The notes below the pieces were generated by a model. It was not told the origin of the DNA, made no database searches, and worked only from the letters and a program-made list of their open reading frames with translations. A stretch of DNA of 63,739 bases, counting the filler, from Hausera hauseri (lineage: Eukaryota): NCBI GenBank assembly GCA_046269625.1. It is 10 parts of 10 records of this genome, joined end to end, with 100 filler letters (N's around TTAATTAATTAA, not from the genome) between each part and the next. Parts side by side here need not be neighbours in the genome. Positions count along the whole stretch, not along the records: positions 16,301 to 24,075 come from JBJURY010904423.1; positions 24,176 to 28,526 come from JBJURY010622221.1; positions 28,627 to 34,668 come from JBJURY010149311.1; positions 34,769 to 38,994 come from JBJURY010689549.1; positions 39,095 to 45,323 come from JBJURY010122429.1; 5 more parts are not named here. The stretch is one strand, 5' to 3'. Position 1 is the stretch's first letter, and the number at the start of each line of letters is the position of its first letter. This document shows, one piece after another, positions 4,997 to 45,423 of the stretch. Made by a program: the position numbers and the translations under genes.

Positions 4997-5044
4997 TTCC
5001 GACCTAGGTGATTTTCTGGGAAACTTAAAATCCTTTAGGTGTGG

Positions 5045-5727: not shown

Positions 5728-5782
5728 TCTTTGTGACCGATCCTCACGTGGGATGTTAGAACGATTAGATTGCATCTCTTCT

Positions 5783-18459: not shown

Positions 18460-18839
18460 TGATAACACTTACGAGCAAAGTAACAAACGATTCCTGTAGA
18501 TCTTTCCAATATCAATATCAGACAAATACTTCAATAAATTTCTATTTAGAAATTTCTCCCGAAGTACAACAAATAATCAATAAGTTTCCTTCTAGTAACA
18601 GAAATAATAAAAATAGAAATTCAGCCACGATTTTTCGTCAGTTAGTAAAATAACTGCTGTTATAACCAATTCAATTAAACTAATTTCATTTCAGTATTTA
18701 TAGTTATTTTTTACAAGATAAATTTAGCGCCGGCGCGAGTAGAAATTGTCAATTAATTTTGATTCAGCCGCGCGCGCTGATTTTAAAACTTAATGCTAGA
18801 CTAGTGCATCTAGTCTAGACAATAGTCATTTTATCAACA
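18460..18839 (-). repeat. Candidate 3' LTR
   Basis: Starts TGTTGATAA right after the purine tract AAGGGTCGGGGAA (18840-18852). TATAAATA near 18695; ends ...GTTATCA at about 18460. No second LTR is available to confirm it. Confidence 0.6.
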
Positions 18840-18999
18840 TTCCCCGACCCTTAAGGGATTAATACAAAAACGAAAAAAATGAAAATAATATTTACATAAC
18901 TAATAAATGAGTCTAATAACTAAAGATGAAAAATAATAAAAATGAAGAATACAATAGATACAAGATAAGAAAATAGCATGCAAGAGTAATCACAATTTT

Positions 19000-19797
19000 T
19001 CAACAGTCTAAGTTTACAATGTTCCTGATATCATTTTCTATTCGAAATGTCAAAGTCTGGTCTGCATCTGGTCTCTTTTTTGACGGTATTCGTTCAATTG
19101 GAATTAGGACTGGTTTTTGATACTTCATTAGGAGGATATATATTAATTTTCCACTTTTGTGATCATCCTTCAATTTTGATATGACCGATTTGTTTTTCAA
19201 TTGTACAGGTAGCTTGACGTTGAATTCTGCGCCTAATCTTATGGGTAATCGGTATAGCTTTTCATAATCATCGAAGAGGTAAAACATCTTTATATCACTT
19301 GAACGTTCAAATATAAAACCAATCACTTCGTTATTGTAGGTGTCCCATGATTGTAAACTGATTTTGGGTATAACTTGATCTATATAGAGAGGGGGTTCAA
19401 CGGAATCTATCACTACGGGAAAACTAAAGTTTCTCGTGTATATAAGTATTCCGTAAGGGAACGTGAATGTTTCAACCGTAGTCAATCCTTTTATAATCCT
19501 TTCGGTGAATTTTATAAAATCGGTTGTCTCTGTTTGAATTGCACAAGATACTTTTTGAATATCTTTATTATTCCAATCATGATTTGATGCATTTTCATCT
19601 TCTTCACTCGCAAGCTGATCTTCCATCTGTAAATTCTTATCTTCATCGGCAATGATATCTGAGATTTCTGATATAGAGGGAGTTTTCAATTCTTCCATTA
19701 TTTCATCTACAATAGCCTCTGTGTTCTGATTAGTTCCTCCGGTTGAATGATAGATCCATGCAAAATCCGACAGGTATTTTTCTCTATTGTAAAACAA
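19000..19797 (-). CDS. Unknown accessory ORF (265 aa), possibly a frameshifted continuation of 19707..20855
   Basis: Long open frame inside the element, with an acidic linker followed by a globular-looking region. Confidence 0.6.
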   Translation of the reverse strand: MFYNREKYLSDFAWIYHSTGGTNQNTEAIVDEIMEELKTPSISEISDIIADEDKNLQMEDQLASEEDENASNHDWNNKDIQKVSCAIQTETTDFIKFTERIIKGLTTVETFTFPYGILIYTRNFSFPVVIDSVEPPLYIDQVIPKISLQSWDTYNNEVIGFIFERSSDIKMFYLFDDYEKLYRLPIRLGAEFNVKLPVQLKNKSVISKLKDDHKSGKLIYILLMKYQKPVLIPIERIPSKKRPDADQTLTFRIENDIRNIVNLDC

Positions 19798-20855
19798 CTC
19801 CCCGGATCAACTACATTATTAAATGTTTCCTGCGGTGTCCATGATACCTGGAAAGGGTTTGTTACCAACTGAAAAACGTCCATAGTGAGTTTCAATTTGC
19901 CGTGGTCGTCTTGCGCATAACCTTGACCATTTTTAAATCCAGGTAATTTCAAAAGAGTACTGATATTTACTAACGTTAGTTGTTGGAACGTGCGTCCAGT
20001 AATTTCTTCGTGTTTCAGTAAGTCTACCACTCCAGCAAGATAATTGAAAGGAATATCGAAAACCTCTATCATCCTGTGGGTTTCTAATCCGATTACCACC
20101 GTTCCAAGCAACCAGTTAATCATTTCTTTTGTGACATCAAATATGTCTTGTATATGATAAGCGATATATTCTGGTAATATGCCATGCCGTATTGAGTTGA
20201 CGTTATGTAACTTCTTCCTGTTAGCTACAATTGCTTTGTATAATATAGCACCTCTTTTGTTGGCAATAATGACGTGAATGGGTAGAGGGCTATTATCTTG
20301 CATATAACCTGTGGATACAGTTAATATTCTGATGGTATTGCTCTGACAAGTATTTATAAAATTGACCTTGGTTTGTATTATTGTCTCCGGCGGGTTATGT
20401 GCTAAGACCATAGGTCTTGGCAAATACAAATGTTTTTCCGGCAGAAGACATTCGATTATCATAATTATTGGAAGGTACAATGGTCTGACTTGGATCAAAT
20501 CAATACTCATAGGGGTATTGATAAAATAAGTTTCTTCTTCGCAAATCGAGTTTGTGATTGCATCAGAATATCGACTTTCATTTCTTGTTTTTAAACAAAT
20601 CATTCCTCTGGCCACGTGTATTACTATCCCATCAATAGCATCTGTTTTAGCCATATATTGTTTTAATTCAAATTGCTGAGATTCATGAATTGTATATATA
20701 CCAAAATTCCTATTCATGGTTATTTCGTGCTTTAATTGGTTGGGGATACGAACCACATTTAAAGCTATGAAACACTCAGTTTTCACCATTTGTCTTCTGA
20801 TGTTGTTATAAAAGGTTTTTGACAAGGTTTTATTAAAACTACTTCTTGAAACCAT
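19707..20855 (-). CDS. Accessory ORF with a C-terminal REX4/ISG20-like (DEDDh fold) domain lacking catalytic acids
   Basis: HVIIANKRGAILYKAIV...HGI...FDVTKEMINWLLGTVVIGL...LTLVNIS..L follows the REX4 pattern VSIVN..G.VLYD..V...SGI...F..V..EV..LL.G.ILVGH. Domain at about 19863-20333. Confidence 0.6.
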   Translation of the reverse strand: MVSRSSFNKTLSKTFYNNIRRQMVKTECFIALNVVRIPNQLKHEITMNRNFGIYTIHESQQFELKQYMAKTDAIDGIVIHVARGMICLKTRNESRYSDAITNSICEEETYFINTPMSIDLIQVRPLYLPIIMIIECLLPEKHLYLPRPMVLAHNPPETIIQTKVNFINTCQSNTIRILTVSTGYMQDNSPLPIHVIIANKRGAILYKAIVANRKKLHNVNSIRHGILPEYIAYHIQDIFDVTKEMINWLLGTVVIGLETHRMIEVFDIPFNYLAGVVDLLKHEEITGRTFQQLTLVNISTLLKLPGFKNGQGYAQDDHGKLKLTMDVFQLVTNPFQVSWTPQETFNNVVDPGSCFTIEKNTCRILHGSIIQPEELIRTQRLL

Positions 20856-22173
20856 AATTCTGAACTAACGTTTGAAAATCTAATTGATCTGCGTGGTATT
20901 GAGGATGTAGTTTTGAATACAATAAGTTTGATTCTATTTGTGAATCGTTTCTCGTCATTTTTGGGTTTTGGCGTTTCATTTTGAATTTCTGTTGATTGAA
21001 TTGATAGAGGACTGAAAATAAATTAAATTCATTTAAATACTCACCTTTGTAGCTTTGTATACAACATACAACCAATGAGCATGTTAGAAGTTCAACTATT
21101 TGTGGGGACGCATGTAGTGTGTGCGATGATTGCTCGTGTAGATGACTAATTTGCAATCGCCATCTTGAAATTAGTGGGCAGTGACACGTGTTAGTGTCAG
21201 TATGACTGTGTCTGACTATTTTTGGAATAATTAAAGTGCCTATAGCCAACGTAAGCAACAAAGCTATACTTAATACAATGATTAACAAAGCACATATAGT
21301 AATACTTAGCTCAACATTATCAATTTTTGGTCTCATAGTCCGAGATTCGTTTCTACTATCTTTTTTATTATAACTAAATTTAACTACATTATTTATTTTC
21401 TGTAATGTTTTAACATAAATTTCTGAATAGTAGGTACAGTTCTTTACTACTACTAAATATTTAGTATCTGAGCTTAATCCTATGCAATAGGCATATTTTT
21501 GTTTTCTTTCAAAAATAATTCTCTGTTTATGGTGTTGGTTTATACAAGTTATACTAACCCATGCATTCCGAGTATTCGTTTGATGATTCCAAGCGAACTC
21601 TATTCTATCTTGTTTAGGATAAGTTAGTACAAACAAGTTATCCGTAATTTCTATGTCATTATACTTAGCCATCTTTTTATACTCCTTATAGGGTATGTTG
21701 CATATATTTTGTTCGGTCATGAAAGTAGTATCATACACAGAATCATTAATTTTAAATGGTATTAGACATTTAATGCTAGATTTAACTGTCAAATGTAAAT
21801 CCCATCTCTTTTCTTTATTGATCTTAAAAATTAGTGCTAGTAGGGAGAATGGTTGATTTATAACCAATAAAAGACAGGTTAAAATATTGTCTTTATATAG
21901 ATCCGCGAAAGCTAATTTGTCTTTATAAGAAATCACTATTTGTACTATGTTGCTAGTAGGTCTCTTTTTAAATCTTATACAACCTTTTTCAAAGTTTGGT
22001 CCTAACACTTGCATTTCTTTGTTAAATATCTCGTCACCAGATGTATGATTTTGATTCTGTTTTATTAGTTGCACCATTGATTCATAGGGGATGTTAAATT
22101 GACCATAACTCATATGAGTGCATGATAACCAAATAGTAAATACACAAATCATAGTTAGCAGATTGGTGGACAA
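20839..22173 (-). CDS. Type I membrane protein-like extension of Pol: hydrophobic signal-like segment, FN3-like domain, TM helix
   Basis: LLTMICVFTIWLSC, then IEFAW...IGLSSDTKYLVVV...YVKT (FN3 Trp and Tyr-corner pattern, ~21403-21642), then LSITICALLIIVLSIALLLTLAIGTLII (~21223-21309). Same frame as integrase. Confidence 0.7.
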   Translation of the reverse strand: MSTNLLTMICVFTIWLSCTHMSYGQFNIPYESMVQLIKQNQNHTSGDEIFNKEMQVLGPNFEKGCIRFKKRPTSNIVQIVISYKDKLAFADLYKDNILTCLLLVINQPFSLLALIFKINKEKRWDLHLTVKSSIKCLIPFKINDSVYDTTFMTEQNICNIPYKEYKKMAKYNDIEITDNLFVLTYPKQDRIEFAWNHQTNTRNAWVSITCINQHHKQRIIFERKQKYAYCIGLSSDTKYLVVVKNCTYYSEIYVKTLQKINNVVKFSYNKKDSRNESRTMRPKIDNVELSITICALLIIVLSIALLLTLAIGTLIIPKIVRHSHTDTNTCHCPLISRWRLQISHLHEQSSHTLHASPQIVELLTCSLVVCCIQSYKGEYLNEFNLFSVLYQFNQQKFKMKRQNPKMTRNDSQIESNLLYSKLHPQYHADQLDFQTLVQNYGFKK

Positions 22174-22284
22174 TAACTTTGGTGATGTAAACCCGAATTT
22201 TCCAGTATACGATTTTGGAGCCTTTGTTACATTTTATATGGAAACATTCTCTATTTTTCCAGGAGACTTTTCTATGAACAGGGT

Positions 22285-24075
22285 TTATGGTCTTACTTCC
22301 ACAACTTTGTATGGTCCTTTGCCAGTGCGGGTTAATTTTAATGATCTTCCTTTAGCTGTGAGTGGATAATGTATCACGACAAAATCTCCAATTTTATATG
22401 GATTTGACTGAGCCTTTTTATTATAGTACTTGGTGTAGGATTTTTTATAATTATCTCTAACCGCTCGCGCTTGTTCTCCATATTCACTTAACTGTTTTAG
22501 TAATAGTGTATAATTTTTTTCTTGCAGGTTACCCGTAAATGGCAGAACTGTTGGTAGCAGCTTGACATCCAGTAGCAACAACGGAAGTCTTCCAAACATT
22601 AATTCGTATGGTGTTTTATTTGTACTTCTCGTTGGTGTGGTATTCATAGCGAAAGCTACAGTTGGTAATTTATCTGGCCCATTTTTCTGATCTGCAGAGA
22701 CTTGTACGGATAAAATTCCTTGTACAGTTCTATTCGAACGTTCAACTTTACCATTACATTGTGGATGATAAGCTGTAGTTAAAACATGTCTAGTATGTAG
22801 CACCTTTGTGACTTCATTAAACAACTGACTTGTAAAATACGGGCTTTATCTGTTAATATTAATCTAGGTAATCCTAAAACGCATATTAATTTGTTGAACA
22901 ACTCCATGGCTATTGTTTCCGTAGTCATAGCTTTTAATGGGATTAATATAATGTAGCTTGTGTAATAGTCAATAAAACTCAATATATATTTGTAACCTGA
23001 TTCCGAGGTCGGATAAAATCCTGAAATATCCATTTCACATATTTCCATAGGTGCTTTTGGCTCTGGAAGTGTTCCAAGCAGTGGTCTTATACATCTTCCC
23101 CTATCCCTTCGGGTTGCGCAAATCTTACAAGATTTGACCCAATTGATTATGTCTTCTGTCTGATTTGGCCAAAATTATTTGAGTTTAATACGCTTTATGG
23201 TCTTGCCTAACGATGGGTGACCAGCTAGTTGAGAATCATGTTCTTGAAGTAAGACTGATTTTATCAAATAATTAGGTATTACAATTAAGGCTTTATCGTT
23301 GCATATGTATTTCAGTATATTTTTATCTATAATCAATTTGCTTTTGTGGTCTGTCAGCCATTCAGTTAAACGTTTATCAATATTAGGCATTTCTGACGTA
23401 CGTACGTACTGCTTCACTACATAAAGTAAAGGATCGTCATCTTGGACAGTTGCTAATTTGTTTGTATTTAGATTCGAGAATTCTGTCATCATCATAGTAA
23501 ATTCGTGTTCATCTATCTAAGTAAGTGCTGCAGAACTGATCTCAGGATATAGGGTTCGCGATATAGCATCTGCATCGCTGTGAAGCCTTCCTGGTACGTA
23601 TTTAAATTTCGGATTGTAGTTTAATAATTCTAATTTCCACCGTTGGATTCTATTATAAATACGCTTGTTTTTACAATCAAGTTTTTCTAATGCTTGGTGG
23701 TCTGTATAAACTATAACTGGGTAACCATATATATAAAATTCGTAATTTCTTAAGCCTTCTAGAATTGCTGACAGTTCCAATTCAGTAGCTGAATAATTTT
23801 TCTCTTCTTTAGTTAAGGCTCTTCCACCATATGCTACCACATTCAATTCTTTCATTAGGATATTGCTGCGCCAAAATATAGCTTAAACCATTTAAACTCG
23901 CATTCGTCTTTAAAATAAATGGTAATTCAAAATCTGGGTATTGTAGAATCGATGCGGAAACCATTTTCTTTTTCATGTCAAATGCGTTTTGGTGCTTTTC
24001 TTTCGAAATGTATTTCTTATCGTTTCGTAGTAATTCATATAATACACTATTTATTTGGGAGAAGTTTTGTATAAA
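22285..24075 (-). pseudogene. pol: Gypsy pol: RT connection, RNase H, integrase with GPY motif
   Basis: EKNYSATELE, VYTDHQAL, DADAISR, EHDSQLAGH...C..C, LILTD, TTAYHPQCNGKVERSN, TPYELMFGR, GKGPY. Confidence 0.95.
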
Positions 24076-24175
24076 NNNNNNNNNNNNNNNNNNNNNNNNN
24101 NNNNNNNNNNNNNNNNNNNTTAATTAATTAANNNNNNNNNNNNNNNNNNNNNNNNNNNNNNNNNNNNNNNNNNNN

Positions 24176-24800
24176 TGTAGACTCTGAGGTACAAGCAATG
24201 ATCAGCTGTAACTTAACAGAAAGTGATGTTGTCTGTATAGACGGATTCATGATTTGTAGCGCATGGGCTTTCACGGCTCATTATGGAGGGAGAACTCCAT
24301 ATTTTTTGTAGTGACAGCAAGTAGCGTGGCTATGGAACTAGTATGGCACTGAAGCGGCAGCGGATGGTCTTATTTTTTAGCGGGATGGAGCATACCAGAA
24401 GAACAGAAACAAAGATGAACAAAATACTGATGAGGCCTTATACAAAGACACTACACAGCATTGTGGGTGGCAACTCTTTTAATGGTCTTCAACCAAAGTA
24501 CCAATTGTGATGATGAAGGCCCCACCCAAAAGATGGCATTCCGTTATTTTTAGCAGTAGTGGATTAGTTACTTAATATGGTACTCTAGGGGCATAGAGAT
24601 TAACCAGAGTTTCTTAAAATTTTTTGGTTCACTGTCATTTTCTTGGCTTGGCTTTGAGAGCCTGTTGAATATTATTAGTCCAATGTGTGCTTTTGGTCCA
24701 GGGAAGGGGTGTAGTTTCTTGATTTCTAAAAGGCAGGGAATTAGTATTAACGAAAAAAAAACATTTTTGCAGTAAAATCTCCGTATTGTTTTAACGCTGC
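24176..24800. mobile_element. Highly degenerate non-LTR retrotransposon remnants
   Basis: Plus-strand DVVCIDG...SAWAFTAH resembles an RNase H N-terminus. Minus-strand QET and NLYAP resemble APE endonuclease motifs. Many stops. Confidence 0.3.
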
Positions 24801-28870: not shown

Positions 28871-29056
28871 ATGACCTGCACAATCTGTTTAAATCATTAT
28901 TCCGTAAATCAGGTGGAGCTGGTCACCTGCAGACATGAATTTTGCCGCTCCTGTCTAAAGGAATGGTTTCTGATATCAAAATCTTGCCCTTTGTGTCGTG
29001 CAAACAATACATTATTTCGAAACGGAGACGAATACTTTACTGTACAAAATTTATAA
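28871..29056 (+). CDS. Small C3HC4 RING finger protein
   Basis: CTIC...CRHEFCRSCLKEW....SCPLCR. Confidence 0.9.
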   Translation: MTCTICLNHYSVNQVELVTCRHEFCRSCLKEWFLISKSCPLCRANNTLFRNGDEYFTVQNL

Positions 29057-29318: not shown

Positions 29319-30340
29319 ATGAAAGTGGTCGACGAATCAACGAGAAATACCCAGACGAGGAAAATATCATTTTTGAGCTATCCGAATTCACCCGTTTCAG
29401 GAGGGTTAGCACACTTGTATGCAAACACAGGATTATTTCGAACCACATCTGGACGAATAAAATGTCTATACTGCCAGGAAGAGTTCCTATACTAGTCTAC
29501 AAACGATCATCCAAAAGGACTCATAAGAAATTATATCCCAAATGTCCTTATTTGTTAAACATTAATGTTAACAACGTACCACAGACAGATAGTTTTTCTG
29601 AACAGCCTGATTTAGATAAGGATGCTGATTATGACACGACAGTACCAGTAAGTGTGGTTTACTTAACAGATAATACAATGGAAGAGAATTTAAGCCTAAT
29701 TTCAAATATAGTACAAAAGAGAAAGTCAACCTTCAAAGGAAACGAGAATATCGAACATTTAGCCAGACAAGGACTAATATTAATCTTGAAAGACGAAGTG
29801 CAATATGTAAAGTGCATCATATATTCAAAGGAAACTTACTGGAAAATATTGATCAACGATGCCCAAACATACTGCATACTACTAAATACAATTACTCCAT
29901 ATATAAAACCCCCGAGAATTACAGTAAAAGACGATGCCGAATACAATTCGATATGGGAAATCTTTATGAAAGTTACCAAGACAGTCCAGTAGCCGTGTCA
30001 ATAATAACCCGACACCCTACAAAAAGCGAAAATATACTACAATATATAAAATATCAAACAGAGGGTCAACTAGACTGGTCTCTAAGTGTGTTTGAACTGC
30101 TACAGAATTTAAATTTTATTCCCCCAGAAGAAGAGCAAGAAGCAGAACAAAATATTCTTAATAAACTTTACTTACGTGATTTAGAGTGTACAATTTGCTA
30201 CGCAAACTCAGTACAAGTTATCTTTTTCCTTGTGGTCATTTAGAAACATGTGAGAAATGCTCAAATAGAACAGAGAATTTTCCAGTTTGCAGAAGTCATA
30301 TAAAAAGAAGAATAACATGCTTCAAATTTCCAGAAATGAA
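29319..30340 (+). pseudogene. Inhibitor-of-apoptosis (IAP)-like gene: BIR, degenerate BIR, C-terminal RING; intronless, frameshifted
   Basis: BIR1 is RKISFLSYP...YANTGLF...IKCLYC....Y*STNDHP/THKKLYPKCPY...NNVP, with the conserved W read as TAG at 29493. BIR2-like is RKSTFKG...LARQGL...VKC. RING is CTICYANSVQVIF/PCGHLETCEKC....PVCRSHI. Confidence 0.88.
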
Positions 30341-30838
30341 CAGTGGGAGCATCTCGATTTTGAACGAATTTTTACCAATAAGTCAGTTTGTATTCGATTT
30401 AAACAAATAAATGTTTATTAGTTTATGTACATAAATTTATTAAATAACCCTCTATTGTAATATATTGAACACATTTGTTTATGGAATTAGTGGATACTAG
30501 TAGAATGACTTTAACCAACCTCGACAAGTGGAGAATCCAGTTACTAACTATAAAGAATCAACTTCCTAAAATGGTTTACGAATGGTATAAACTATATAAT
30601 GACCTCTACTCATTAGGGTAATGGAACTAGGGTACTCCAAATACTTGGCGATGGTTGCTATTAAAATCGATGAAAAAGCCGGATATGAAACACTACCATC
30701 AGTGATTACCAACATATATCAAATACAATTAATGGATGATGAATACTACCAGAGAGTTCAACACTTGACTTCGACATTAAAAGGAAAAGAGGAAGAAGTG
30801 GAAGAAAATATACTGATATGAGCCGTGCAATTTGGACT

Positions 30839-30990
30839 TGTTTGATTTGTATAAAAAATCAGTCAAATACGATACACCTACCATGCGGACACATGATTCA
30901 TTGTAAAGCTTGTGTAACTAAACATTCAATGTTATAGAAATGTACTGTGTGAATTACCTATAGAAGAAATCTGTACCATATATACGTACT
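30839..30990 (+). pseudogene. Third RING finger (IAP/MDM2-type spacing), disrupted
   Basis: CLICIKNQSNTIHLPCGHMIHCKAC....*KCTV/ELPI. Not in the ORF track because of a stop and a frameshift. Confidence 0.8.
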
Positions 30991-31024
30991 AAAATGTATA
31001 GAAACTTAGCCTCCTTTAATAACA

Positions 31025-33500
31025 GTGGAACAGGGACATCAATATAATACTCGATCCCGCGGACGATTGGCACAAAATCAGTTGACTGCAATTAATGAAG
31101 CTGATTCAAGCGAAGAAAACACAAGCCCCACTAATAGTTCAAATACTTTAAGTACAGCATCAGCCCCAGAATCATTACTTGACATTGATCCATTACAATT
31201 GTCTCCAGTTCCAGTACAATACCATTGGATACGAGGAGTCAGTGGACGACAAAGGCCACCTCGAGATCAATACCACAATGCACCTAATTCGCGTCAGTTA
31301 GCACAGAGAATTATTAATCAAGAATTAGAATGTCGAACACGTTACAAAGTACATTAAGTAAATGTACATAATTTAAAAATAAGACAGAATCAGGCGGAAT
31401 ATACCATTCGACAGCTACTTAGAGATATACAAGATATAGCCCGACAAATAGGAGACTGTACAGTAGAAATAAGTATCATAAATAAGAGTATGAGACTAGA
31501 TAATGTCGAAAAAAGAAATATACGAATAGAAGAAAAAGTAAATGGTAACGGCACAAGTCTAAATGAACTCGAGGAAAGAACGGATCAAATAATACAAAAT
31601 ATAGGTGCCAATACTAGACAAATACATAATTTATAACAGCAAACTATGGACAACATAGCAGCAATACATAGAAATATGAAACAGATCGAAAATAACGAAA
31701 GAAATGCGAATCAATGGTTAAATGAAATGCAAAATCAAGTAGCAATTATAGTTTGCGAACAAGAACAGATACAAGTAGAAAATAACCTTATCAGAAATCA
31801 AATTGATGTTTTGGCTAGAAACATTAGCCAACTAAACGAATGCCTTAAACACGTACAGGCGAAAGAATTAATAGCTTGACTGAATGAACGAATAGAAGAT
31901 GAGCAATCACCAGAATTTTCAGCGAAACTAAGTTCTATACCTTGTGAAACCTTTGATACCGATAGTGACAACATGGAGCCGCTAAGGAATAATCAGGATC
32001 CCTTGGCTCAGCATGGTGAGCGTAATTGTGGTCTGCAGAGGGATATAAATAACAATTCCGGTTACGACCCACCAAACATTAACGAAAGAAGGAGAAAAGA
32101 GAAGTACCAAATGTTCCCTCGCCTTCAATCATACGAAGGACGAGTATCGGACTTAGAGGATTTTTTAGACGAATACGATTCGCTAGCAACAGCCATGCAT
32201 TGGGTGATGCAAGGAAAATATCTCTTTTACCAGTGCATGTGAATAATTATCTGAGAATGGCAATAACACGCCTACCTAGACGTGTTGACGAAAATTGGAC
32301 GCAACATCGAGAAAGAATTTTACAAAATCAACAAGGTGATGTACAAGAAAACCGATATCTAAAATTTCAAAACTGTAAACAGAAACCGAATGAAGAAGTC
32401 TTAACATACATCAACAGATTTAAAAGCGCAATGAATAGATACTTTGGTTTGAATGAAGAAGCCCTTGGGGATATGATCATGAAGCAATTTGTACTTGGAC
32501 TTTTACCAACTTTACAAAAAGGAGTCAAATTTCATACAGCAAATAATTTTAATGAATTGATAGAATATATCCAACGAATAAAAACTGGAATAAACGAAAC
32601 ACATGTCTGGACTAATCAGAGGCAAATCTCAGCAGTAGCCACAACATTATTGTTAGTAAGACCAGATGTAGCAAATAGTAGTAATTCACCTAGGAGTGAT
32701 CTGTCGAGAAGCCAAAGCCCTAATCGGCAAGACAGCAATACACCACAGAGAGGCAACACTCTGGAAAGCGGAGTTATAACTAATCATCCAGAGACTACAA
32801 CAATAATCAAAGAGATACCTCATATCAAAGAAGTAGAAGATACTATGATGATCGACAACGGAATAATACAAAATACAATAGATCACGAGTTTACTCGAGG
32901 GCCAGAAAGGACAATAGAAACCGATTTCCTAGTAGAGAAAGGTACAGTAATGATAAAAATCCCAATCGTTATGATAATATAAATAATCAGGGGAACCAAT
33001 ATCATAGACGAGATGACAGCCTAACGCGATATCCGACTAATCGGTCGGAAGGATTAAGAACCAACTATTCCAACGACAGGCGAAGTAAAAGCCATGAGAG
33101 GTTTAGAAGAGATGATAGCCGAGATCGATATGGTATCTTCAATAGAAATGTTAGCAGAGAAAGAGATAACAGAAGAAGTGATAGCATAGACAGATATAAT
33201 TCTGGAAATGATAATAGTAATAGGTATAACGATTCGAGATCTGAAAATCTTGACAGAAGGCATGACTATACCCTACCTGGACGAGAATTAGACAGATATA
33301 ATAAAAATCCCAGTCCATATCCTGAAAGAGATCGAAAACAAACCCCATCAACCAGACCAAGCAATAATAATGACAGATATGCCCGACCACCAGATTATAG
33401 TTCCAGACGAAACGAGTCATCATCAAACAGAAATATTTTCTCATCCAGATACGATAGAAATACGACATCCGAATATCCTAAGCACCAAAATGAAAGCAAA
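31025..33500 (+). pseudogene. gag: Ty3/Gypsy Gag: coiled-coil N-terminus, capsid, long R/S/D/N-rich tail without zinc knuckle
   Basis: YNTRS near the start, then heptad-rich 31330-31880. Capsid FPRLQSYEG...FLDEY...A.AMHW/DARKI...FQNCKQKPNEEVLTYINRF...FVLGL lies at ~32111-32590. Confidence 0.85.
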
Positions 33501-35098
33501 TTGGACTCAACAATACCATCTTATAACATTTCCACAAAAGAAAGAGGAAACTCTCTAGATAATAGGAAAAGTAATAATGACGAAAGGAGTGTTTTACCCC
33601 GCCGCTCAGTAACTTTCAACGAACAAAGTAAATCAGCTTTTACGGGACTATTAATGGCCAAACCAATAATAGAACACCAACAAATCACATTCAAACCATC
33701 ATCCAACATGTCTATTTTAGAAAAACCCGTCATAACGAGAAACTATTTGAATCAAGCGGAACGAAAGGTACCAAATTTACAAAATAATACGCTTCCGTAT
33801 ATGTTATGGCCAGAAAGAAAGGAAATCAAAAATTTACTTTTACATCTGTAGCAGTATAAAAAATATCGTAGACGAGCAGGAACCAGAAAACAGTCAAATA
33901 AGAATGGCGTGCGTCGAAGGTGATCAGATAGTTAAGTTAGAAAATGTACATCTCGAAAAAAAAAATGTGCTGAAAGCCTCAGACAGCTACTCTGTGGAAA
34001 ACTTATTGTTGGAATTGAATCACCATGCTTGTTCAAGCAAATACAGCAAAAAGAAACAGATATCTTCGGTACGTTTAGTGTAGATCAGAATTATAATTTA
34101 CCAAATGATTATCGAGAAAGAGAAAATACATTACTCCAGCGATTAACTAATCTACGACAAGAATACAAAATTAAACTTAACCGTCAGGGACCCCAATATT
34201 ATATTTTTCCAAACAGACCATTGTATAAGGACGAGAGACATCCCCAACGAGAAATAACATGTAACACCATCATGATTCCGGAAGTAAAATAACAGCATCT
34301 GGACATAGATACAGTTCGAAATTGGGATAAGATATTTGCTAACAAGAAGTCTAACCAAATAGAGTTTGAAGATATTGCCAAACAAGGATTGATTTGTGTG
34401 GAAGGTGTCGATAAAGCTTACTTAAAGAATACCGATATCCAGATTAAAAAGAATGATTCACCATGTGAAATTAATACCAATAAAGGAGAAGCCTGACTAC
34501 AAGTCAGTAATAAAACAGTAATCATTTCCAAAGGGACTATGATACTTCCCAATTATTCATATGAAGAAGATTGTCAAATCCAACCACTACATAATTGCCC
34601 GTTATACTTAATTCAATTGCTTAAGGAAACACCCATATTATCTGTGGATGAACCTGTAACGCAGGATANNNNNNNNNNNNNNNNNNNNNNNNNNNNNNNN
34701 NNNNNNNNNNNNTTAATTAATTAANNNNNNNNNNNNNNNNNNNNNNNNNNNNNNNNNNNNNNNNNNNNTTGTCCATCTACAAACTGACCATTAAAGACAA
34801 CAATATCGTATAAACAACATGGCCCCAACTCCATGCTTATGTAATCCACAAAGGCAATGTATCGGGAAAGTTTCTTCACGACTGTCCCGTGCCTGAAACA
34901 CAGCGTGCCTCCATTTGGTCATCTGGTTGTTTCTATTATCAACAGCTGTACACTGACTATGATAATGGCGAAATGCGTGAGATATTCCTAGACCATAACA
35001 TCATTGTTGCCTAGGTACGAAAGCACAAAATGAAGACACACACAATTTTGATAACAAATCCATAATAGCTAGGTGAACACTAGTACGTTTTCTTAGCC

Positions 35099-37680: not shown

Positions 37681-37711
37681 CTGAGGAAGACTTATAGTCG
37701 AAACGTCGTCT
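37681..37711 (+). ncRNA. Hammerhead ribozyme-like core (Penelope-type minimal motif)
   Basis: CTGAGGA-a-GAC-ttata-GTC-GAAAC-gtc-GTC: both conserved boxes, stem II and a GUC site. Stem I pairing is weak. Confidence 0.45.
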
Positions 37712-39094
37712 CGTCTTTTTATGTATATTTTCATCTCTCCTTCCTAGGTAAGACATTTACTAACCTTTTTTGTTTTTGTACACTCATTCTCCAATCTTCG
37801 TTACTGATCGTAGCTCGTTGGTACTATAGCGATGACTGCGGTTTGTACGTTCAAAGGCCTAATTTGCTGCCTCGAATGCAAACGTTCGTGGGATTCTAAA
37901 GCGTCCGCTGAACTTCCAAGAAAGCGTGATTATGACTGCTTCAATTAAACACGTCCAGCAGCTTCTACCCATCTTGGGATCGACGGTTTCCACTGCTCAC
38001 GATGGTAACCGTCCTGCTTCTCAGGACAACATGGTTCTGCTGCTCCTCTCAACGGGCAACGAAGGAATACTTCTTGCTCTAATGTCTTCTCTGGAAAAAC
38101 TTGTCGTCACTTATCAACCGCTAAGATGTTTCTTCGTCTCGTGTTCTCTCCGGTGCTGACATTTCTTAGTTGCACACCTCGTTGACACGTTCCTTAATCT
38201 TCCATTTATGACTGCGCTCACTATCTCGCAACCTGTATGTGTGTTGGTATATATGTCCTATCTTCCCTTTCTATCTTAATCTACGCGTTCATCCTAAACT
38301 CCCGTGATGGTATTACTACACTCAGAAGCGTATCGGGGAATGTGGAATTGGTATTCACATTTTTCTTGGCCAGTTACAGAGTGTATATTATGTGATCAGT
38401 ACAACAAAAAAGCAGATATTACTTCACCAAAGAATTTCTCTGATACCCAGTTTTTGATTATGCGGTGACTCGAATCGCTTTCGTTCCGAAAAATTCGACT
38501 CAGAAAAGAATGCGGAAATGTGAAGATTGCGTCTACATTTCTTCTTGGTGAACGTTACAAAATGGGATTACGTGGTAAGTATAGCGAAAAGCAGACTTTG
38601 CGTCATCAAAGAATTTGTCTGGTATCCAATTTTTTATCCTGGGTGAACCCTACAACCGTGTGGGTTGGAAATAGAAGCGTGGAAGCGAACGCCGGACGGA
38701 GAATGTAGAGTTCGTATCCACATTTTCTGGGTCAACGTCAGATAACATCGAGCTGTATTTACTTCACAAAAAATTTCTCTTCTACCTAAATTTGTGATGC
38801 TAAGTTTACACGGAGCCGTTTTGATCGAAGAAATTCGACCTGCCACTGCTAGCAATCGAACCTGCGATTTTGAAATCGGCAAGTGTGTGAACCAACCACT
38901 ATACTCTGCAGATATCCTCCTGTTGATCAACTCTCTTGCGAGTTTTCTATTGTATGTGCATGGTTAGACCATTGACGATCGGGACAAAGACCGANNNNNN
39001 NNNNNNNNNNNNNNNNNNNNNNNNNNNNNNNNNNNNNNTTAATTAATTAANNNNNNNNNNNNNNNNNNNNNNNNNNNNNNNNNNNNNNNNNNNN

Positions 39095-40660
39095 TTACTA
39101 ATTCCGATGAATTTGGAGAGACAGCATTGTAAGCAAGCTAGAGAAACAGGAAGAATAAAATTGGATGGTATGGAAGTGAAAATGCAGCAAGGGAAAATAA
39201 TCAGAGTGTATAAAGTGGCAGCAGGAAAACTAGATATGCATACTCGACATTGTTGCCGTGCGGAATACGATACCGGAAAGGGACTAGAGTCAAACATCGT
39301 TGTAGTGGATTTTTACAAAACCGAAATGCGTATACAGAAAGTGATGTTTCATAGCGTTACTAAACTTTACACCGAGAACCACAAGTGCCACATTCAGGAT
39401 GGCACATGCCCGTTTCAAAGTTCCGTAGTAATTTGGGAACCCCCAGCCAAGACCGATTGCAACTTTATCAAAATTAAAGAACTTAAGTTCAACGAGACGA
39501 CAGGAAAACGATATATAACTAGCACGGAAACTAACTCTAAAACACGAGAAGATGTGGCCAAACAGTCCACACCTACTATACTAATTTCTGATACTCATGG
39601 ATTAAAATTTGTAAAGAAAGCTATGCTCAACAGATGCGACATCGTAATGTATGCCACCAACTATAAAGCATTTTTCGTAACCGAGACAGAAATAAACGCC
39701 AGAACGTTGAAACTCGAGACTCAGGACATTCGGATCGAAGACTATTTGAAGAACAGAGACGACTATTTCTACTGTAAAGGACAAGTTGGAATAGCCAAAT
39801 TATACCACAAAATGATAACAAATGACTGTAAATTCACTTGGAAATCATGATAACTAAGCTGGTCCTGATATACGCCAATCCCGAGTTGGCATCACCAGTA
39901 ATTCCGATTAAAGAGGGTGTTTTTGGACGAGTAACCGGAGAGGTCTTATTGATCTATGAAAGTGAAAAGAAAGACGTACCGATTAATGTGGAGGAGAAGA
40001 GGTGTATACAAGAACTTCCAGTGATGTATCAGGACGTACCGAGATTAGTCACACTAATTACCAGAGTGTTGTTGGCAAACGCCACTCAACCGACAATTTT
40101 GAGAGACTGCAAAACTAGCTTAGGAGAGCCGATGTTCAGATGTAGCAAGACCGACTGGTAAGTCTACCGAACGGCGGTATTATCTCACCACCTACCAAGC
40201 TGACAGGAAAAAACCTGATAAAAGGAATAACCGATGATAAATTTCAAGATACAGCCGCAAAGGGTATTTACCGACCCAAATAAGTAGAGGCGTTTATACA
40301 ATTTCTCGCTTTTCCGCGCCAACGTACATATGAATTAAACAGAGCGATGCACACAATATTGGAGGATTCGCGGTACCAGGCGAAATGGGAGTATTTACTT
40401 GGTGTTGGCTATTACAAGAAGGTAACTACAGAAATATTATACAAAATTTGGGGAAGATTCCTGATATTTGGGCAAGCCGCGTCAGGATTTTTAGCGATAT
40501 ACTTCTTAATTCAACTAGTAAAAGCTATAATTCAAGCAATCATAAATGGATACGAGATATTCACCTTGACAGGATTTTCGTGTAAAATTTTAACGGTTAT
40601 TATTACACCCTTCGGTAAATTCTTAAAGGCTTATGAAGAAAGTAAATGGAAACAGATGTG
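39095..40660 (+). pseudogene. env: Envelope-like class III fusion glycoprotein (chuvirus G / gB-like family), 5'-truncated, frameshifted
   Basis: Ordered motifs: CHIQDGTC....VIW....DC; CDIVMYATNY; EGVFGRVTGEV; RCIQELPV; ITRVL...DC....F....W; FQD.AAKGIY....L.FP; W..F..FGQAASG plus TM plus INGY. Confidence 0.8.
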
Positions 40661-41304
40661 GAGCGGCATGTTGGTTACCATAATCAAAAACGTAGAAAAC
40701 ACATATTCGATTATAGGCAAAAATTCATAGTCAGTAAGACACAAAGAAATAATTCGGATAATAACGAGCCTAAGGGAGGAGACGGCATCTCCAGGCTAAA
40801 AAGGCATAGAAATTACTCCGTTATGAAACTACCGTTACCAATACTGCTGCCAACGGCATCTATATATGAGGATTGCGAGAAAAAATCTGAGTTCGTGTCA
40901 GACAGACGTTTATCGGAAGCCTTTCAATTTAGAGGACCCTTACGAAGGAACAAAACGCTATGGGATATTGCGTATGATCCACGAAACGGAAAGGACGTCC
41001 GCCCCACCTCGTCGGTCAACAGTCGACGACCACGGCATAATTTACTCACCTAGAATACCTAAGCCAAACAAAATGCAATCGATATTTACTCGAAGCTGTG
41101 AGGCACAAAATTCCCGAAACCAAGATGTTCAGCCACCGGTTAGAAACCAAAGAGTAGAAAACACAAATGGTCCAAATAACGAACTATATCCAATTGGAGA
41201 GCTAAGACAATTAATCGATCAGCCAGTTGGAACCACTAAAGTTACCATCAACAGCTACAAAGTGTCTACGATACGACAACCCAAGATAGCACCAAGTATT
41301 ACGG

Positions 41305-41660
41305 TAGAGTAATCGAAGGCAGGCCCTTCGCAAAGATTCAATTGGAAGATTTGGAGGTTTATTCACTAATAGACACAGGATACGAAATATCACTGATAAA
41401 ATATGATTCAATACCACAATTCTTACGGAAACAATTATATCCACCTCCTACGACAGACCCAGGAAGCATTGGAGCTTTCGGACAATCCTAGAAGAGTAAA
41501 TTCCGATGGAAACCAGAAATTTACATAATGGGATAATCTTTTCGTCATGAATTCTCAGTAATGGAGCAATTAACGGATGATGTAGTGCTAGGATGCGATC
41601 TATTGAAACAACCACCTAATATAGCAATCGATTTCAATGCAGGCAAGTTGATAGAACTTG
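41305..41660 (+). pseudogene. pol: Retropepsin-type aspartic protease
   Basis: RPFAKIQLEDLEVYSLIDTGYEISLI (DTG at 41372-41380) and DVVLGCDLL. Frameshifted, so absent from the ORF track. Confidence 0.88.
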
Positions 41661-41719
41661 GCCCAAAAAAGGTGTTAAAACCATTAAAGACAAAAAATTT
41701 GGAGAAGTATGGATCCCCG

Positions 41720-44700
41720 TAGACGAGAACATACCGCCCAGAACTGAAATATTAATATACGCTCACATACGTCAGGATGACGATAAACCAGTATATTTCG
41801 AACCAAAAGAATCGCTCAATCCAAACCTCGTGCTCAACAACGTTTTGACAAGAGTATCAACGGGCCGCGTGCCAATCAGAATAGCGAATAACGCAACAAC
41901 TCCGATCAAACTGTATGCCAATACCACTTTGGGACACATGTATAGAGTATCATCCATTACCATCGAAGAGAAACCGTATAAGGGTGCCGAATTTCCACCC
42001 CACGTTGAAACTAAATTCTCACCGGAATTATACTGCCGATTCTACGAATTACTTTGTCGTTATAGTTCGATTATCGCGAAAGATGAAGAAGATATTGGCC
42101 GAGCCAAAACCTTAAGGCTTACCATCCCGCTTAAGAAGAAGTCTGGCTCCAACGACCAAATAGACTTAAAGGATCAAAAGATGCCGAAATGGTACCCTCC
42201 TCCACACTCGCTAAGGCCAGAGATAACTAAGGAAGTTGAACGAATGTTAAAGGCTGACATAATGAGACCAAGCTATAGATTTTGGTATTTACCTATCCTC
42301 ATAGTTAAGAAGAAAGGCACCGCGAAGCACCGATTCTGTATCGATTATCGAGTACTAAACACACTTATGATGAAGGACTCCTTCCCATTGCCATCGGTAA
42401 AGGAAGCTTTGGACAGACTTTCTGGAGCTAAATGGCTCACCACTCTTGACTTGCAATCCGGATATTGGCAAGTGGAGATAGAGGAGGAAGATCGTTACAA
42501 AACGGCATTTAAGACACACGATGGCATATACGAATTTAATGTCATGCCTTTTGGAATCACTACCGGATTAGCCATTTTTACGCGCATGATAAATAAGATG
42601 GTAATAAGATTGGAACACGCATTTGCCTACTTGGACGATGTTATTATTGCGTCGAAAACGAAAGAAGATCACCTAAAGGACATTGAATGTACACTCATGA
42701 GAATGGAGCAGACTGGATTGAAACTGAATCCCAAGAAATGCAAATGGGCTCAAAATGCGGTATTGTACCTTGAACATATAGTTGCAGAAGGAGGATCGAA
42801 GCCGAATAAATCATTATTGAGTAAGATATCGGATTGTATGGAACCTCAAAATCAAAAGGAATTAAGACACTGGTTGGGGCTATGTGGGTATTATGCAACC
42901 TACATATCCGATAACGCAAAGATAAACGCACCTTTACATCACATACTCAAAAAGAGATTAAATAGAAATGGACCGACATAGAACAAAAAGCTTTTGACAA
43001 AATGAAAAAGATTCTGAGTAGTGAACCTGTTCTACGGTAACCCGACTTTAACCTACCGTTCATAATTAAAACAGACTCCAGTAAGGAAGGTATCGGATAT
43101 GAACTGGCCCAGAAACGAGAAGACGAGGAGCAAGAGCACTTGATTGCATATAGAGGACGTTCTCTAAAAAAAGCTTAGAAGAACTATTCCGTAACAGAGT
43201 TGGAAACATTGGCAGTAAAAGAAGCACTGAGACATTTTAACATGTACGTCTATGGACAAAATATTATAATCGTTACTGATCATAAAGCAGTTATGACTTT
43301 GAAAGATAGAGCAAATAATCCAACATGCAGATTAAACAGATGGATAGAAGAAATTTCACGTTATAATATTGAATTCCAATACAAGTCCGGAAATAAACAT
43401 ATCGACTCCGATGCATTATCGAGACTTAAAACTAAAACAAGCGCAGTTCCTGTAATGAGGAAAGCACACCTCGAAGACTTAGTAGAAGGACAACGGACTC
43501 TCGTGCTGGATAAATCATTAAGGATTTCTTTCAAACAAAAGAAGGACGGAGTTATACAACAAATTATCGAGTTCGTTGACACCAACGTAACACCCAAGGG
43601 TCATCAGTTACGGAAACAACTACGACAATATGGTCATAAATACTGCGTCGTTGGAGATTTAAACCACAAAAACGTGTTAAACTACGAACGAAAAGGACAA
43701 AAATTGGTAGTCATACCAAAAGGATTGCGTACGGAAGTACTCATAACCGAACATGATTCATACTTAGCCGGACACATGTCGTGGAAAAAGACATTAAAAA
43801 GGATATTAAATAAGTACTATTGGCCGAGTATTTATATCGACGTAAGAAATTGGATGAACGCTTGCGAAGTATGCGCGACCAAACAAAGAAAAGTAAAAAA
43901 AGCTACATTGCCAAACTTAAACCTATCCACGTGCCAGATAGACCAATGTAAGCAATGTCTATGGATATTGTATGACCACTGCCTACAACCCACAAGAATA
44001 ACAAATACATTTTGACCTGCGTAGACCGATTGACTCACTTCGTCGAACTTGTAGCGTTATTAGACCAAAAGGCCGAGACCTTGGCAGAAGCCGTAGTTCG
44101 AAAAATCATTTGCAAATACGGGCCACCCGAACAAATTTTGACAGACCGAAGAAGAAACTTTGCGAGCGAATTATTTAACAAAATTAACAAGATTTTTAAA
44201 ATTGAACGACTAACTACCACAGCTTATCATCCCCAATGTAACGGAATGGTCGAACGAATGAACGCGACAGTTATACGAATCTTATCAACAGTAGTCGCAA
44301 AAGACCAGAAAGATTGGGATGAGTTCTTAGAAGGTATACAGTTTGCCATTAATACGACTTCACATCCTGCGACAGGATTCACTCCGTTTTTCATGATGTA
44401 TGGCAGAGAAGCTGTCCTGCCTACCGATTTAGGATTAATTCCCTACGCAACGAAAATGGAAGATCTAGAGCAGAATTTTGTTAAAGTATTACAAACGAGA
44501 TTGCATAAGTGATGGAAAATAGCCAAGGAATTATCTAAAGAATACCAGGAACAATTCAAGAAGCAATACGATAAGAAGGCTAAACCGCACGATCTGGAAC
44601 CCGGAAACTGGGTTTACGTGCACTACCTAGTGGCAAAGAAAACACATCTCTTAAACTCACACGGACAGGTAGAGGACCTTACGAAGTTACCAAAGTAACA

Positions 44701-44760
44701 CCAACCACAGTTTATATAAATAAAAACGGCAAGGAAGAGATCATATCAATTCAGAGAATA
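41720..44760 (+). pseudogene. pol: Gypsy pol: post-protease (dUTPase-like) spacer, RT, RNase H, integrase
   Basis: RFCIDYR.LN, LDLQSGYWQV, KTAF, VMPFG, AYLDDV, IIKTDSS, NYSVTELE, TDH, EHDSYLAGH...C..C, ILTD, TTAYHPQCNGMVERMN, GRGPY. Confidence 0.96.
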
Positions 44761-45285
44761 GTTAAAACGGAAATAAGACTAAATAAACGCTATAATTTGC
44801 GTTCGAATAAAGTCAGTAAGGAAAGGAAAACATCGTCAATCGTAACCAGACCTATATCATATGTACAAATAATCCTTGTCCTATCGCTAATCGTTTCTTA
44901 TGTACCCAAGGTAAAATTAATAACTAGAGCCGAAAAACTACGATACGCAATGAAAGGCAGGGATATCCAGAAAATGCAATCACTTAGAGTATACGATATG
45001 GATTGTAGAAAACCATGTGCATGGTTTGAAGCAAGCGAACCTATTCAGATCCACGTAAAATTTCAAATAATATTTGTAACCAGATCCACGATGAAAACAT
45101 GTGATTTTTCATATGGATATCACAAAAGAAGCTGTGATTTGGATTTTGGACAAGCCTACGGGTACATATTTCAAATGTTTTATTTTAATCAGTTTGGAGC
45201 TCAAGCTTATATAATTATAGAACTCGTAAGAAGAATGCCCCAACGAAAGGACGCAAACCAAACCAAGACAGACGAAATAATTTAA
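44761..45285 (+). CDS. In-frame extension of integrase with a hydrophobic segment and a Cys-containing domain
   Basis: The frame from 44641 (SLKLTRTGRGPY...) is stop-free into ORF 44797..45285, which contains YVQIILVLSLIVSYV. Confidence 0.75.
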   Translation, partial: VKTEIRLNKRYNLRSNKVSKERKTSSIVTRPISYVQIILVLSLIVSYVPKVKLITRAEKLRYAMKGRDIQKMQSLRVYDMDCRKPCAWFEASEPIQIHVKFQIIFVTRSTMKTCDFSYGYHKRSCDLDFGQAYGYIFQMFYFNQFGAQAYIIIELVRRMPQRKDANQTKTDEII

Positions 45286-45423
45286 CGCACTGACCCATTT
45301 AAAAGATTCTTAGACTATAACATNNNNNNNNNNNNNNNNNNNNNNNNNNNNNNNNNNNNNNNNNNNNTTAATTAATTAANNNNNNNNNNNNNNNNNNNNN
45401 NNNNNNNNNNNNNNNNNNNNNNN

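Follow-up and report, generated by a model that had tools for sequence, protein, structure and literature searches.

Decayed pieces of three gag-env-pol Gypsy families in Hausera hauseri and a predicted second membrane protein in their intact relatives

Three contigs of the Hausera hauseri assembly GCA_046269625.1 are, on sequence comparison, decayed pieces of three different gag-env-pol Gypsy families and not of one. Intact relatives of these families encode a single gag-env-pol polyprotein with four predicted passes through the ER membrane, from which two surface proteins would be released; this combined reading is considered probable. The window, the whole stretch of 63,739 nt that was analysed, comprises ten contigs with N spacers between neighbours, and the three of interest (C3, C5 and C7) are unlinked within it, as a preliminary description of this DNA had stated. 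All three copies contain many stop codons and frameshifts and cannot themselves make the predicted element proteins. No LTR pair was detected in C3 or C5, or in the relative loci L001, L003 and L005, and the window contigs are internal fragments. A total of 19,625 contigs aligned to C7, most of them less than 95 % alike, and intact ORFs were not found in near-identical copies. The search of sequencing runs returned one matching run, which may be the source of this DNA itself, with no RNA run among the matches listed.

Contig C7 carries the central part of an element on the plus strand. The C-terminal three quarters of a glycoprotein, including its membrane anchor, occupies 39095..40727 and, in its decayed state, matches the Pfam family PF24664 (gB/mononegavirus-G-like) with E values of 2.2e-15 and 2e-4. 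It has 33 homologues, and nine of the ten conserved cysteine columns are kept, which identifies the C7 env as class III and gB-type at the level of sequence. This glycoprotein lies 5′ of protease, RT, RNase H, integrase and a GPY module (41240..44700, decayed; Pfam), in agreement with the fusogen proposed earlier. The Ty3/Gypsy order PR-RT-RH-IN followed by a GPY/F module is complete in C7, and the C7 pol is 35–42 % identical to intact relatives. Between PR and RT, where a dUTPase-like domain was sought, a region of ~100 aa aligns with relatives and has no Pfam match. Word-based searches found nothing with the C7 env and only distant Gypsy polyproteins (best 30–44 %) with the C7 RT. Related-locus searches with C7 RT, P0134, A2, A5 and P0135 as queries found nothing, and a search of genome contigs and viral contigs for the RT motif gave no match. 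The post-integrase region (44700..45282; hydropathy and FN3 profile) contains a signal-like segment (~44854-44904) followed by a cysteine-containing region of ~125 aa. The FN3 unit that had been expected in this tail was not matched by the FN3-unit profile, and the reading frame, which stays open almost to the end of the contig, holds no second hydrophobic segment.

Contig C3, on the minus strand, starts within RT/RH and covers the end of a decayed Gypsy pol, with RNase H, integrase and GPY module at 22294..24075 (Pfam RT_RNaseH, Integrase_H2C2 and rve; tree). A predicted type I membrane protein follows in the integrase frame (20842..22233), consisting by hydropathy of a signal-like segment (~22114-22176), an ectodomain of ~264 aa (21310-22101) and a transmembrane helix (~21223-21309) with a tail. 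This signal-ectodomain-TM layout is matched in all eight clade relatives. Both C3 and C7 had been credited with an in-frame hydrophobic extension after integrase; hydropathy showed a hydrophobic segment after GPY in both, with differing frames. The C3 segment is in the integrase frame with two stop codons upstream of it, and the C7 segment is in the frame of GPY, which is itself shifted relative to the integrase core.

The relatedness of C3 and C7 proposed in the preliminary description was upheld. The shared motifs EHDS.LAGH.S..KT.KRI..K, TTAYHPQCNG.VER.N and SLKLTRTG(K/R)GPY were all found as quoted, and the two are mutual nearest relatives among 83 RH-IN sequences (SH 1.0) and form a sister pair in a tree of 28 sequences (UFBoot 100), clustering with eight env/tail-type relatives (UFBoot 94). 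A single element family, with C5 as its 5′ part, C7 as its middle and C3 as its 3′ part, would fit this sister relationship, the complementary nature of the parts, their similar decay and the sense-strand A-richness common to all three contigs. However, where C3 and C7 overlap, in RNase H-integrase, they have just 37 % protein identity and almost no DNA similarity. C5 can be compared with C7 through its own lineage, which reaches env in frame: P0154 is 44–56 % identical to C5 throughout 31025..34668 and 57 % identical to P0134 over 771 aa, and P0134, itself 48 % identical to C5 over 630 aa, ends in PF24664 (E 1.9e-63) and stops after env. The C7 env is only 25 % identical to the P0134 env although env is the better-conserved part, changing less than the sequence upstream of it in all 11 natural pairs that could be aligned, and C5 and C7 are therefore assigned to different families. 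The position of a dead nuclease module also differs, inside the polyprotein in the C5 lineage and 3′ of it in C3. A single family is thus very improbable and largely refuted. The contigs had been read as parts of related elements, with C5 as the 5′ part of the C3 and C7 families; three deeply diverged families are found in their place.

Contig C5 (plus strand) combines a RING/IAP cassette with the start of gag. A decayed ORF with an N-terminal C3HC4 RING (RING1, 28874..29053; Pfam zf-RING_2, E 9.7e-12) is followed by a broken, intronless IAP-like gene (29319..30340; BIR profile, tblastn and Pfam) and by a short ORF ending in an IAP-type RING (RING3, 30481..30946; Pfam zf-C3HC4_3, E 4.4e-8). 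BIR domains have the cysteine/histidine spacing C-x2-C-x16-H-x6-C. Within the IAP-like gene, BIR1 (~29350-29560), interrupted by one stop and one frameshift, scored 28.3 bits with X placed at both breaks, a score reached by 0 of 1000 shuffles, while a second BIR-like stretch (~29700-29830) was weak (0.8 bits, 23 of 1000 shuffles). The IAP-type RING2 (~30170-30323; Pfam) is matched by a viral IAP RING (tblastn E 1e-5), and BIR1 with RING2 gives the BIR and C-terminal RING of an IAP in this broken gene. The three RING fingers have Pfam E values of 1e-11, 1.5e-7 and 4e-8. Resemblance to a UBA domain in the middle of the RING3 ORF was seen by eye only, and sequence searches gave it no support. Downstream, 31025..34668 holds the decayed 5′ third of a gag-env polyprotein (identity to P0154 and P0134; Pfam), in the order coiled coil, Gag core (~32100-32590; Retrotrans_gag, E 2e-6), R/D/N/S-rich region and start of a barrel/pseudo-exonuclease module, where the contig ends. 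A candidate BIR at 34293 was rejected, the site being part of the barrel/nuclease module. Of the RING-IAP-RING-gag order claimed for C5, the three RINGs, gag and one BIR therefore stand and the second BIR is weak.

By its profile match BIR1 is real, and its linkage to the element is putative. The RING and IAP ORFs might be adjacent host retrocopies, or a separate insertion 5′ of gag, and not element cargo. They are separate ORFs, P0154 begins at the gag start without them, and no BIR was found among the 154 proteins and 15 locus ORFs fetched, none of which reaches 5′ of gag. However, the ORFs are intronless, lie head-to-tail on one strand and end ~80 nt 5′ of gag, the sense-strand A-skew is unbroken on C5 from ~28900, no primer-binding site between the ORFs and gag was obvious by eye, and Burro-like elements are reported with BIR cargo and an upstream accessory ORF in the review text (PMC6431247). 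A host origin or separate insertion consequently seems unlikely, and the cassette is treated here as probable element cargo.

The complete layout was obtained from intact relatives. Locus L005 has an ORF of 3,703 aa on a 16.6-kb contig, in the order gag(CCHC)-ubiquitin-like-env-PR-RT-RH-IN-signal-ectodomain-TM. Env precedes PR-RT in one ORF in P0122, P0130, P0135, P0136, L003 and L005, and the env-PR order also occurs on C7. The position of env between gag and pol is thereby composed of C7 (env-PR), the C5 lineage (gag-env, in P0154 and P0134) and L005 (all), with no single window contig carrying the whole. CCHC knuckles after gag are present in L005, P0125 and P0127 and absent from C5 and P0154. 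Before env, sub-threshold Pfam matches to Bcl-2-like or ubiquitin-like motifs were found in P0123 (Bcl-2, E 0.001), L005 (ubiquitin, E 0.018) and P0125 (E 0.055 and 0.031); these matches come from relatives only, as the region lies outside what the window contigs cover. Ankyrins follow integrase in L001 and L004, and none is present on the partial contigs of the window. The five intact loci have one dataset prefix in common and for that reason are not independent samples, and L006 (GC-rich, with another layout) was left out of all counts. As judged from sequence, elements longer than 15 kb occur among the intact relatives, in which exonuclease genes and a second membrane protein accompany gag, ubiquitin/Bcl-2-like cargo, class III env and pol. 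The earlier proposal of elements of this length that combine entry, anti-apoptotic, ubiquitin-ligase and surface functions is in this way partly borne out, at clade level and in the intact relatives; no relative among those fetched has both IAP/RING genes and a C3/C7-type pol in one element.

The complex virus-like design proposed earlier has for the most part been described before: its core, consisting of gag, cargo of Bcl-2/ubiquitin-like and BIR type, an in-frame env and pol, is in print for Burro as well as for GAG-ENV-POL errantiviruses. Burro/GYPSM1 elements are planarian giant gypsy-like elements with gag, ubiquitin-like and BCL2-like motifs, env and PR-RT-RH-IN in one ORF; their in-frame env is related to mononegavirus glycoproteins, their cargo includes BIR and ankyrin domains and an upstream accessory ORF, and they occur in thousands of copies, decayed in some hosts (PMC6431247). 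A link to Burro, raised in the preliminary description, was confirmed by this account of gag-env-pol and BIR (PMC6431247). Likeness is seen in the domain order of the L005 single ORF, the BIR cargo of C5 and the decay of copies. Described Burro traits also include MATH cargo, two to three CCHC knuckles after gag, a dUTPase-like domain between PR and RT, and a length of more than 30 kb; a MATH domain was not seen here. The C5 lineage, unlike Burro, has no CCHC knuckles and has its BIR in an upstream IAP gene of its own, together with three RINGs, and is therefore termed Burro-like and not Burro, the comparison being with Burro by description only. Class III env between gag and pol also defines GAG-ENV-POL HSV/gB-type errantiviruses of Platyhelminthes, Bryozoa and Nematoda (Chary and Hayashi, PMC13524379), where nine flatworm errantiviruses are listed, six of them Schmidtea elements of 14.5–18 kb (PMC13524379). 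The env row of Smed_errantivirus_1 resembles P0122/P0123 and C7 by eye (PMC13524379). The main text of that paper contains the words 'fibronectin', 'exonuclease' and 'apoptosis' 0 times and does not describe the tail or cargo (PMC13524379), and the review text names no post-integrase membrane protein or exonuclease for Burro (PMC6431247). Neither feature was found for this clade in the texts searched, and the original Burro figures and extended data may show the tail.

At least two hydrophobic segments after GPY were found in all eight clade relatives and in C3, compared with 0 of 46 other Gypsy polyproteins. This indicates a second predicted membrane protein after integrase in these eight intact relatives and C3, usually with FN3-like units. 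P0130 has the tail yet falls outside the clade, and P0051 has env and no tail. In C3, the FN3-like unit lies close to the membrane, at 21418..21621 (minus strand; profile and Atlas), and contains a pair of conserved cysteines. A profile of nine units from relatives scored 26.8 bits on C3 (0 of 500 shuffles), a match that is favoured because the units were chosen by a motif C3 shares; an early three-unit profile was not significant, 12 shuffles reaching its score. Atlas fn3 neighbours of the C3 tail (best 0.86) are a lead only, and Pfam fn3-clan matches were sub-threshold (L004 E 0.004, L001 E 0.06). The FN3 model had seven strands at pLDDT ~50 (mean pLDDT 40), and fold searches with it gave generic beta-sandwiches only, with no significant match (best Z 6.3, rmsd 3.8 over 90 residues). 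The FN3 membrane protein of the preliminary description is accordingly kept as a lead from Atlas, profile and sub-threshold Pfam matches and not as a confident fold, and the ectodomain is likely FN3-type. The L002/P0002 ectodomain is short and cysteine-rich, without the FN3 motif. Ectodomains diverge fast, those of L001 and L004 being 37 % identical although their RTs are 92 % identical.

In retroviruses and errantiviruses, a single env gene is understood to serve attachment as well as fusion. The tail protein most likely acts in adhesion or attachment, alongside the fusogen. It could instead be a host-surface receptor mimic or signalling decoy, with spread perhaps occurring without free particles. 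Such a role would suit the FN3, TM and short tail, which are like cytokine-receptor/RPTP ectodomains (Atlas neighbours; a Dep-1-type FN3 hint), the fast divergence and the host-modulating nature of the remaining cargo. Set against this, the Env cysteines and anchor are kept across the clade, and the tail protein belongs to the same polypeptide chain as Gag, Env and Pol, which favours co-assembly. Mimicry is considered the less likely of the two, though a serious contender, and attachment is preferred. If true, a conserved surface protein from the end of Pol would represent an attachment/fusion split in a reverse-transcribing element, or host receptor mimicry, and it offers a direct way to test if Burro-like elements are proviruses capable of infection.

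All five intact loci carry exonuclease-family ORFs downstream of the polyprotein, as an active copy or, by motif, a dead-plus-active pair. The C3 accessory ORF (19710..20786, minus strand) is a DEDDh/RNase T-family pseudo-exonuclease, as claimed previously, on the agreement of Atlas (RNase_T in 29 of 30 hits, 0.92), profile and motif columns. The exonuclease profile scored 32.0 bits on this ORF, 18.1 on P0134 and 23.0 on P0154, and none of 500 shuffles reached the score in any of the three cases. The acids of ExoI and ExoII are missing in C3, P0134, P0154, L001_d1 and L004_d1 and kept in the other five of the ten aligned. The hhalign comparison of the C5-lineage module with C3 was weak (P 0.04), PDB sequence searches gave no meaningful match, and the pseudo-exonuclease, modelled from its single sequence, gave a structure too poor to use (pLDDT 29), with a best Z of 3.6 in the fold search. 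In P0130, an acidic domain at the N terminus looked exonuclease-like by eye and did not match the exonuclease profile. In bdelloid rotifers, the Gypsy LTR elements Juno and Vesta likewise have a DnaQ-like exonuclease gene, the DEDDy ORF3, downstream of pol, and it has been exchanged among element types (PMC5408684). Unlike the DEDDy form described there, the present module is of the RNase_T/DEDDh type and has an additional domain at its N terminus. It is found active, dead or as a dead-plus-active pair, either downstream of the polyprotein or within it, and in elements that also have env. The module, as a 3′ gene or within the polyprotein and in live and dead versions, is a candidate element-encoded counter to silencing.

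From the observed domain order, relatedness, decay and conservation of tail and exonuclease genes in relatives, we infer the following mechanism. Gag and the ubiquitin-like/Bcl-2-like cargo would be synthesised in the cytosol, an internal signal would direct Env into the lumen, and the Env anchor would bring the chain back to the cytosolic side, where PR-RT-RH-IN would be made. The FN3-like ectodomain would then be displayed by a further signal and anchor, and signal peptidase would free both surface proteins, the class III fusogen and the likely FN3-type one. These two would be produced 1:1 with Gag and Pol, all tethered to one membrane from which enveloped particles could bud. IAP, RING and Bcl-2-like products, likely host-tuning accessory genes, would hold off cell death, and the DEDDh module would protect the RNA of the element from small-RNA silencing by trimming or shielding it. 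More speculatively, and with rather low confidence, these elements may form an endogenous-virus clade with a class III fusogen and FN3 attachment protein from a four-pass polyprotein, an IAP/RING cassette that opposes cell death and a mobile pair of active and dead DEDDh modules directed against small-RNA silencing; if true, this would be a retroelement organised as a complex enveloped virus.

A third 3′ ORF of C3 (19003..19806, minus strand; 268 codons, acidic at its start) shares its first part with the last part of the pseudo-exonuclease ORF and had no match in Pfam, PHROGs or the exonuclease profile. Beyond it, on a contig with no LTR partner or direct repeat, a non-coding T-rich stretch with a short GC-rich palindrome (18460..19002, minus strand; sequence and strand skew) is possibly a 3′ UTR or the start of an LTR. 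The N-terminal part of the C3 accessory ORF appeared barrel-like by eye.

The ten contigs of the window (C1 to C10) are separated by artificial N spacers, and the element pieces lie on three of them: C3 (16301–24075, minus strand), C5 (28627–34668) and C7 (39095–45323). Comparison of the window contigs showed no similarity of C4 or C6, which lie between these three, to C3, C5 or C7. C7 encodes, in order, a class III (PF24664) glycoprotein (env) with an anchor, protease, reverse transcriptase (RT), RNase H (RH), integrase (IN), the post-integrase GPY module and a hydrophobic segment. In C3, RNase H, integrase and GPY are followed by a frame of 464 codons, in which there are two main hydrophobic stretches, and then by two ORFs, one of 359 aa and one of 268 codons. 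C5 has three RINGs together with a coiled coil, Gag and a region of low complexity. Stops and frameshifts were present in C3, C5 and C7 alike. C7 is a member of an abundant, diverged family. Along its whole length, 19,625 contigs of sequencing run X1 (possibly the window's own source and not independent) could be aligned; 16,072 of these were <95 % alike to C7, with transitions predominating.

The preliminary description treated the three contigs as the 5′, middle and 3′ parts of related elements in one candidate Gypsy family. The relatedness of C3 and C7 was upheld, with the two being sisters in a tree of 83 RH-IN sequences (SH 1.0) and again in an author-chosen subset of 28 (UFBoot 100), though their RH-IN identity is only 37 %. 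Six metagenome loci (L001–L006) were retrieved with a clade-specific RT motif, and L006 was left out as GC-rich and differently built. The remaining five are intact, share one dataset prefix and cluster with C3, C7 and the natural relatives P0002, P0122 and P0135 at UFBoot 94. L005 encodes 3,703 aa: a gag that has CCHC knuckles, then a stretch resembling ubiquitin, env, protease, RT, RH, IN and the predicted membrane tail. Ankyrins after IN are an extra feature of L001 and L004; the repeats sit with additional protease-like domains downstream of IN and ahead of the second signal. Several polyproteins among P0122, P0126, P0127, P0128 and L001–L005 have between two and four aspartic-protease-like domains, some of these downstream of integrase. 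By eye, L001 has an additional ORF with a ubiquitin-like stretch at its end. The database entry for P0135 assigns this eukaryotic retroelement polyprotein to a bacterial MAG as a hypothetical protein, which probably reflects contamination.

A full HMMER search with the C7 glycoprotein gave 33 matches; PF24664 was found in 15 of 16 proteins scanned, and four run on into RT. P0154 aligned with C5 from the gag start through the contig end (44–56 % identity), the N-terminal region of P0134, one of the glycoprotein-search proteins, matched the C5 3′ end (48 % over 630 aa), and P0154 and P0134 overlap at 57 % identity over 771 aa. These matches indicate that, in natural relatives, a C5-type gag ORF continues without a frame change into a class III glycoprotein. 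This answers half of the check proposed in the preliminary description, but the glycoprotein is only 25 % identical to that of C7 (487 columns). Of 45 natural pairs tried, 11 had a 5′ region that could be aligned, and in all of these env was better conserved than the region 5′ of it. Together, these comparisons argue that C5 and C7 represent different lineages and not parts of one element family.

At least two hydrophobic segments (Kyte–Doolittle 1.7 or more over 17 residues) followed GPY in eight of eight clade relatives and C3, one P0002 segment being borderline, vs none of the 46 other polyproteins with a locatable GPY (of 119 examined). A profile built on nine ectodomain units, drawn from six relatives, matched C3 (26.8 bits, 0/500 shuffles); selection of the units by an anchor motif favours this match. 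C3 was the profile's sole significant match in the window's six frames, with no match in C7. Two of four locus ectodomains had sub-threshold Pfam fn3-clan matches, and the nearest named Atlas clusters were fn3 (best 0.86; a lead). The predicted model has seven strands (pLDDT about 50). The ectodomain is likely FN3; the membrane FN3 protein first proposed is supported by the C3 tail and by these profile, Pfam and Atlas leads, but fold matches were to generic beta-sandwiches only.

Pfam RNase_T matches were obtained in four of ten downstream ORFs, with which three more aligned, and the module was present in all five loci L001–L005. L001 and L004 carry a tandem pair 3′ of the polyprotein, a putatively catalytically dead DEDDh exonuclease gene and then an active-looking one. 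The exonuclease profile matched a C3 ORF (32.0 bits), P0154 (23.0 bits) and P0134 (18.1 bits, internal in both proteins), each with 0/500 shuffles. RNase_T accounted for 29 of 30 Atlas matches of the C3 ORF, and ExoI and ExoII acids were absent from all three modules, in agreement with the pseudo-exonuclease of the preliminary description. The module is the one feature common to C3 and the lineage of C5. Its N-terminal part has a cupin-barrel look, by eye only. Coiled-coil-like accessory ORFs lie next to the exonuclease gene in L003 (12229–12663) and L005 (11375–12040), in reversed order between these sister elements.

The C5 BIRs were not picked up by Pfam or PDB searches. A viral BIR profile (45 units, 30 loci) gave BIR1, read with X at its breaks, a score of 28.3 bits (0/1000 shuffles). 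RING2 and RING3 matched RINGs of viral IAPs (E about 1e-5). The IAP/RING reading of C5 therefore stands for these domains, but is weak for BIR2 (0.8 bits, 23/1000 shuffles). The RING/IAP ORFs are intronless and close-packed, share the strand skew of the gag region, and the last stops about 80 nt 5′ of gag. Because no fetched relative had a BIR or any extension 5′ of gag, these ORFs are regarded as putative element cargo.

A signal–ectodomain–anchor unit is predicted twice per polyprotein chain, which suggests a four-pass ER topology with Gag and Pol cytosolic and two ectodomains lumenal. Flavivirus-type polyproteins have a similar multi-pass ER topology. With both surface proteins and Gag made in one chain, their co-assembly would be favoured. 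The best guess for the FN3-like protein is a role in attachment, with receptor mimicry close behind. Going by what is known of their families, the cargo proteins may counter cell death and silencing.

Burro already unites gag, BIR, BCL2-like and ubiquitin-like components with pol and an in-frame env that is mononegavirus-like (PMC6431247), which bears out the Burro link made in the preliminary description. BURRO1 is described as abundant, active and piRNA-controlled (PMC8532177), and the catalogue of GAG-ENV-POL elements covers flatworms, bryozoans and nematodes (PMC13524379). Exonuclease ORF3s, like the nuclease genes here, were already known in rotifer elements (PMC5408684). The core gag–cargo–env–pol design is thus known, whereas no description of the post-integrase membrane protein was found in the text of the papers searched.

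CpG observed/expected was 0.91–1.12 in C1–C8 vs 0.48 in C9, which makes a mixture of two or more organisms in the window likely. The CpG-depleted C9 (50285–59651), with an Ig-domain/TM exon that is semaphorin-like by eye, is likely of vertebrate origin and would thus come from a second organism. A short inverted-repeat (MITE-like) element is common to C3 (17122–17400) and C2 (about 13990–14600). C1 carries a decayed element (2161–7102, minus strand; RT E 3e-5), BEL/Pao-like by eye, whose gag region has CCCH zinc fingers and, at its start, a ubiquitin domain ending in GG (Pfam E 2.7e-18); diverged repeat pairs (124–397/8033–8306 and 1207–1475/8981–9262) may be LTR remnants. C8 (45424–50184) is a decayed Gypsy element of the ordinary kind; it lacks env and is only distantly related to C3 and C7 (26 % in RT). 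By eye, a C6 ORF (35102–35758, minus strand) has a homeobox-like helix-3 motif at its start; it had no Pfam match. A thrombospondin-repeat gene with several exons lies on C10 (59752–63739), and the strand opposite to it carries a fragment of a mariner-type transposase.
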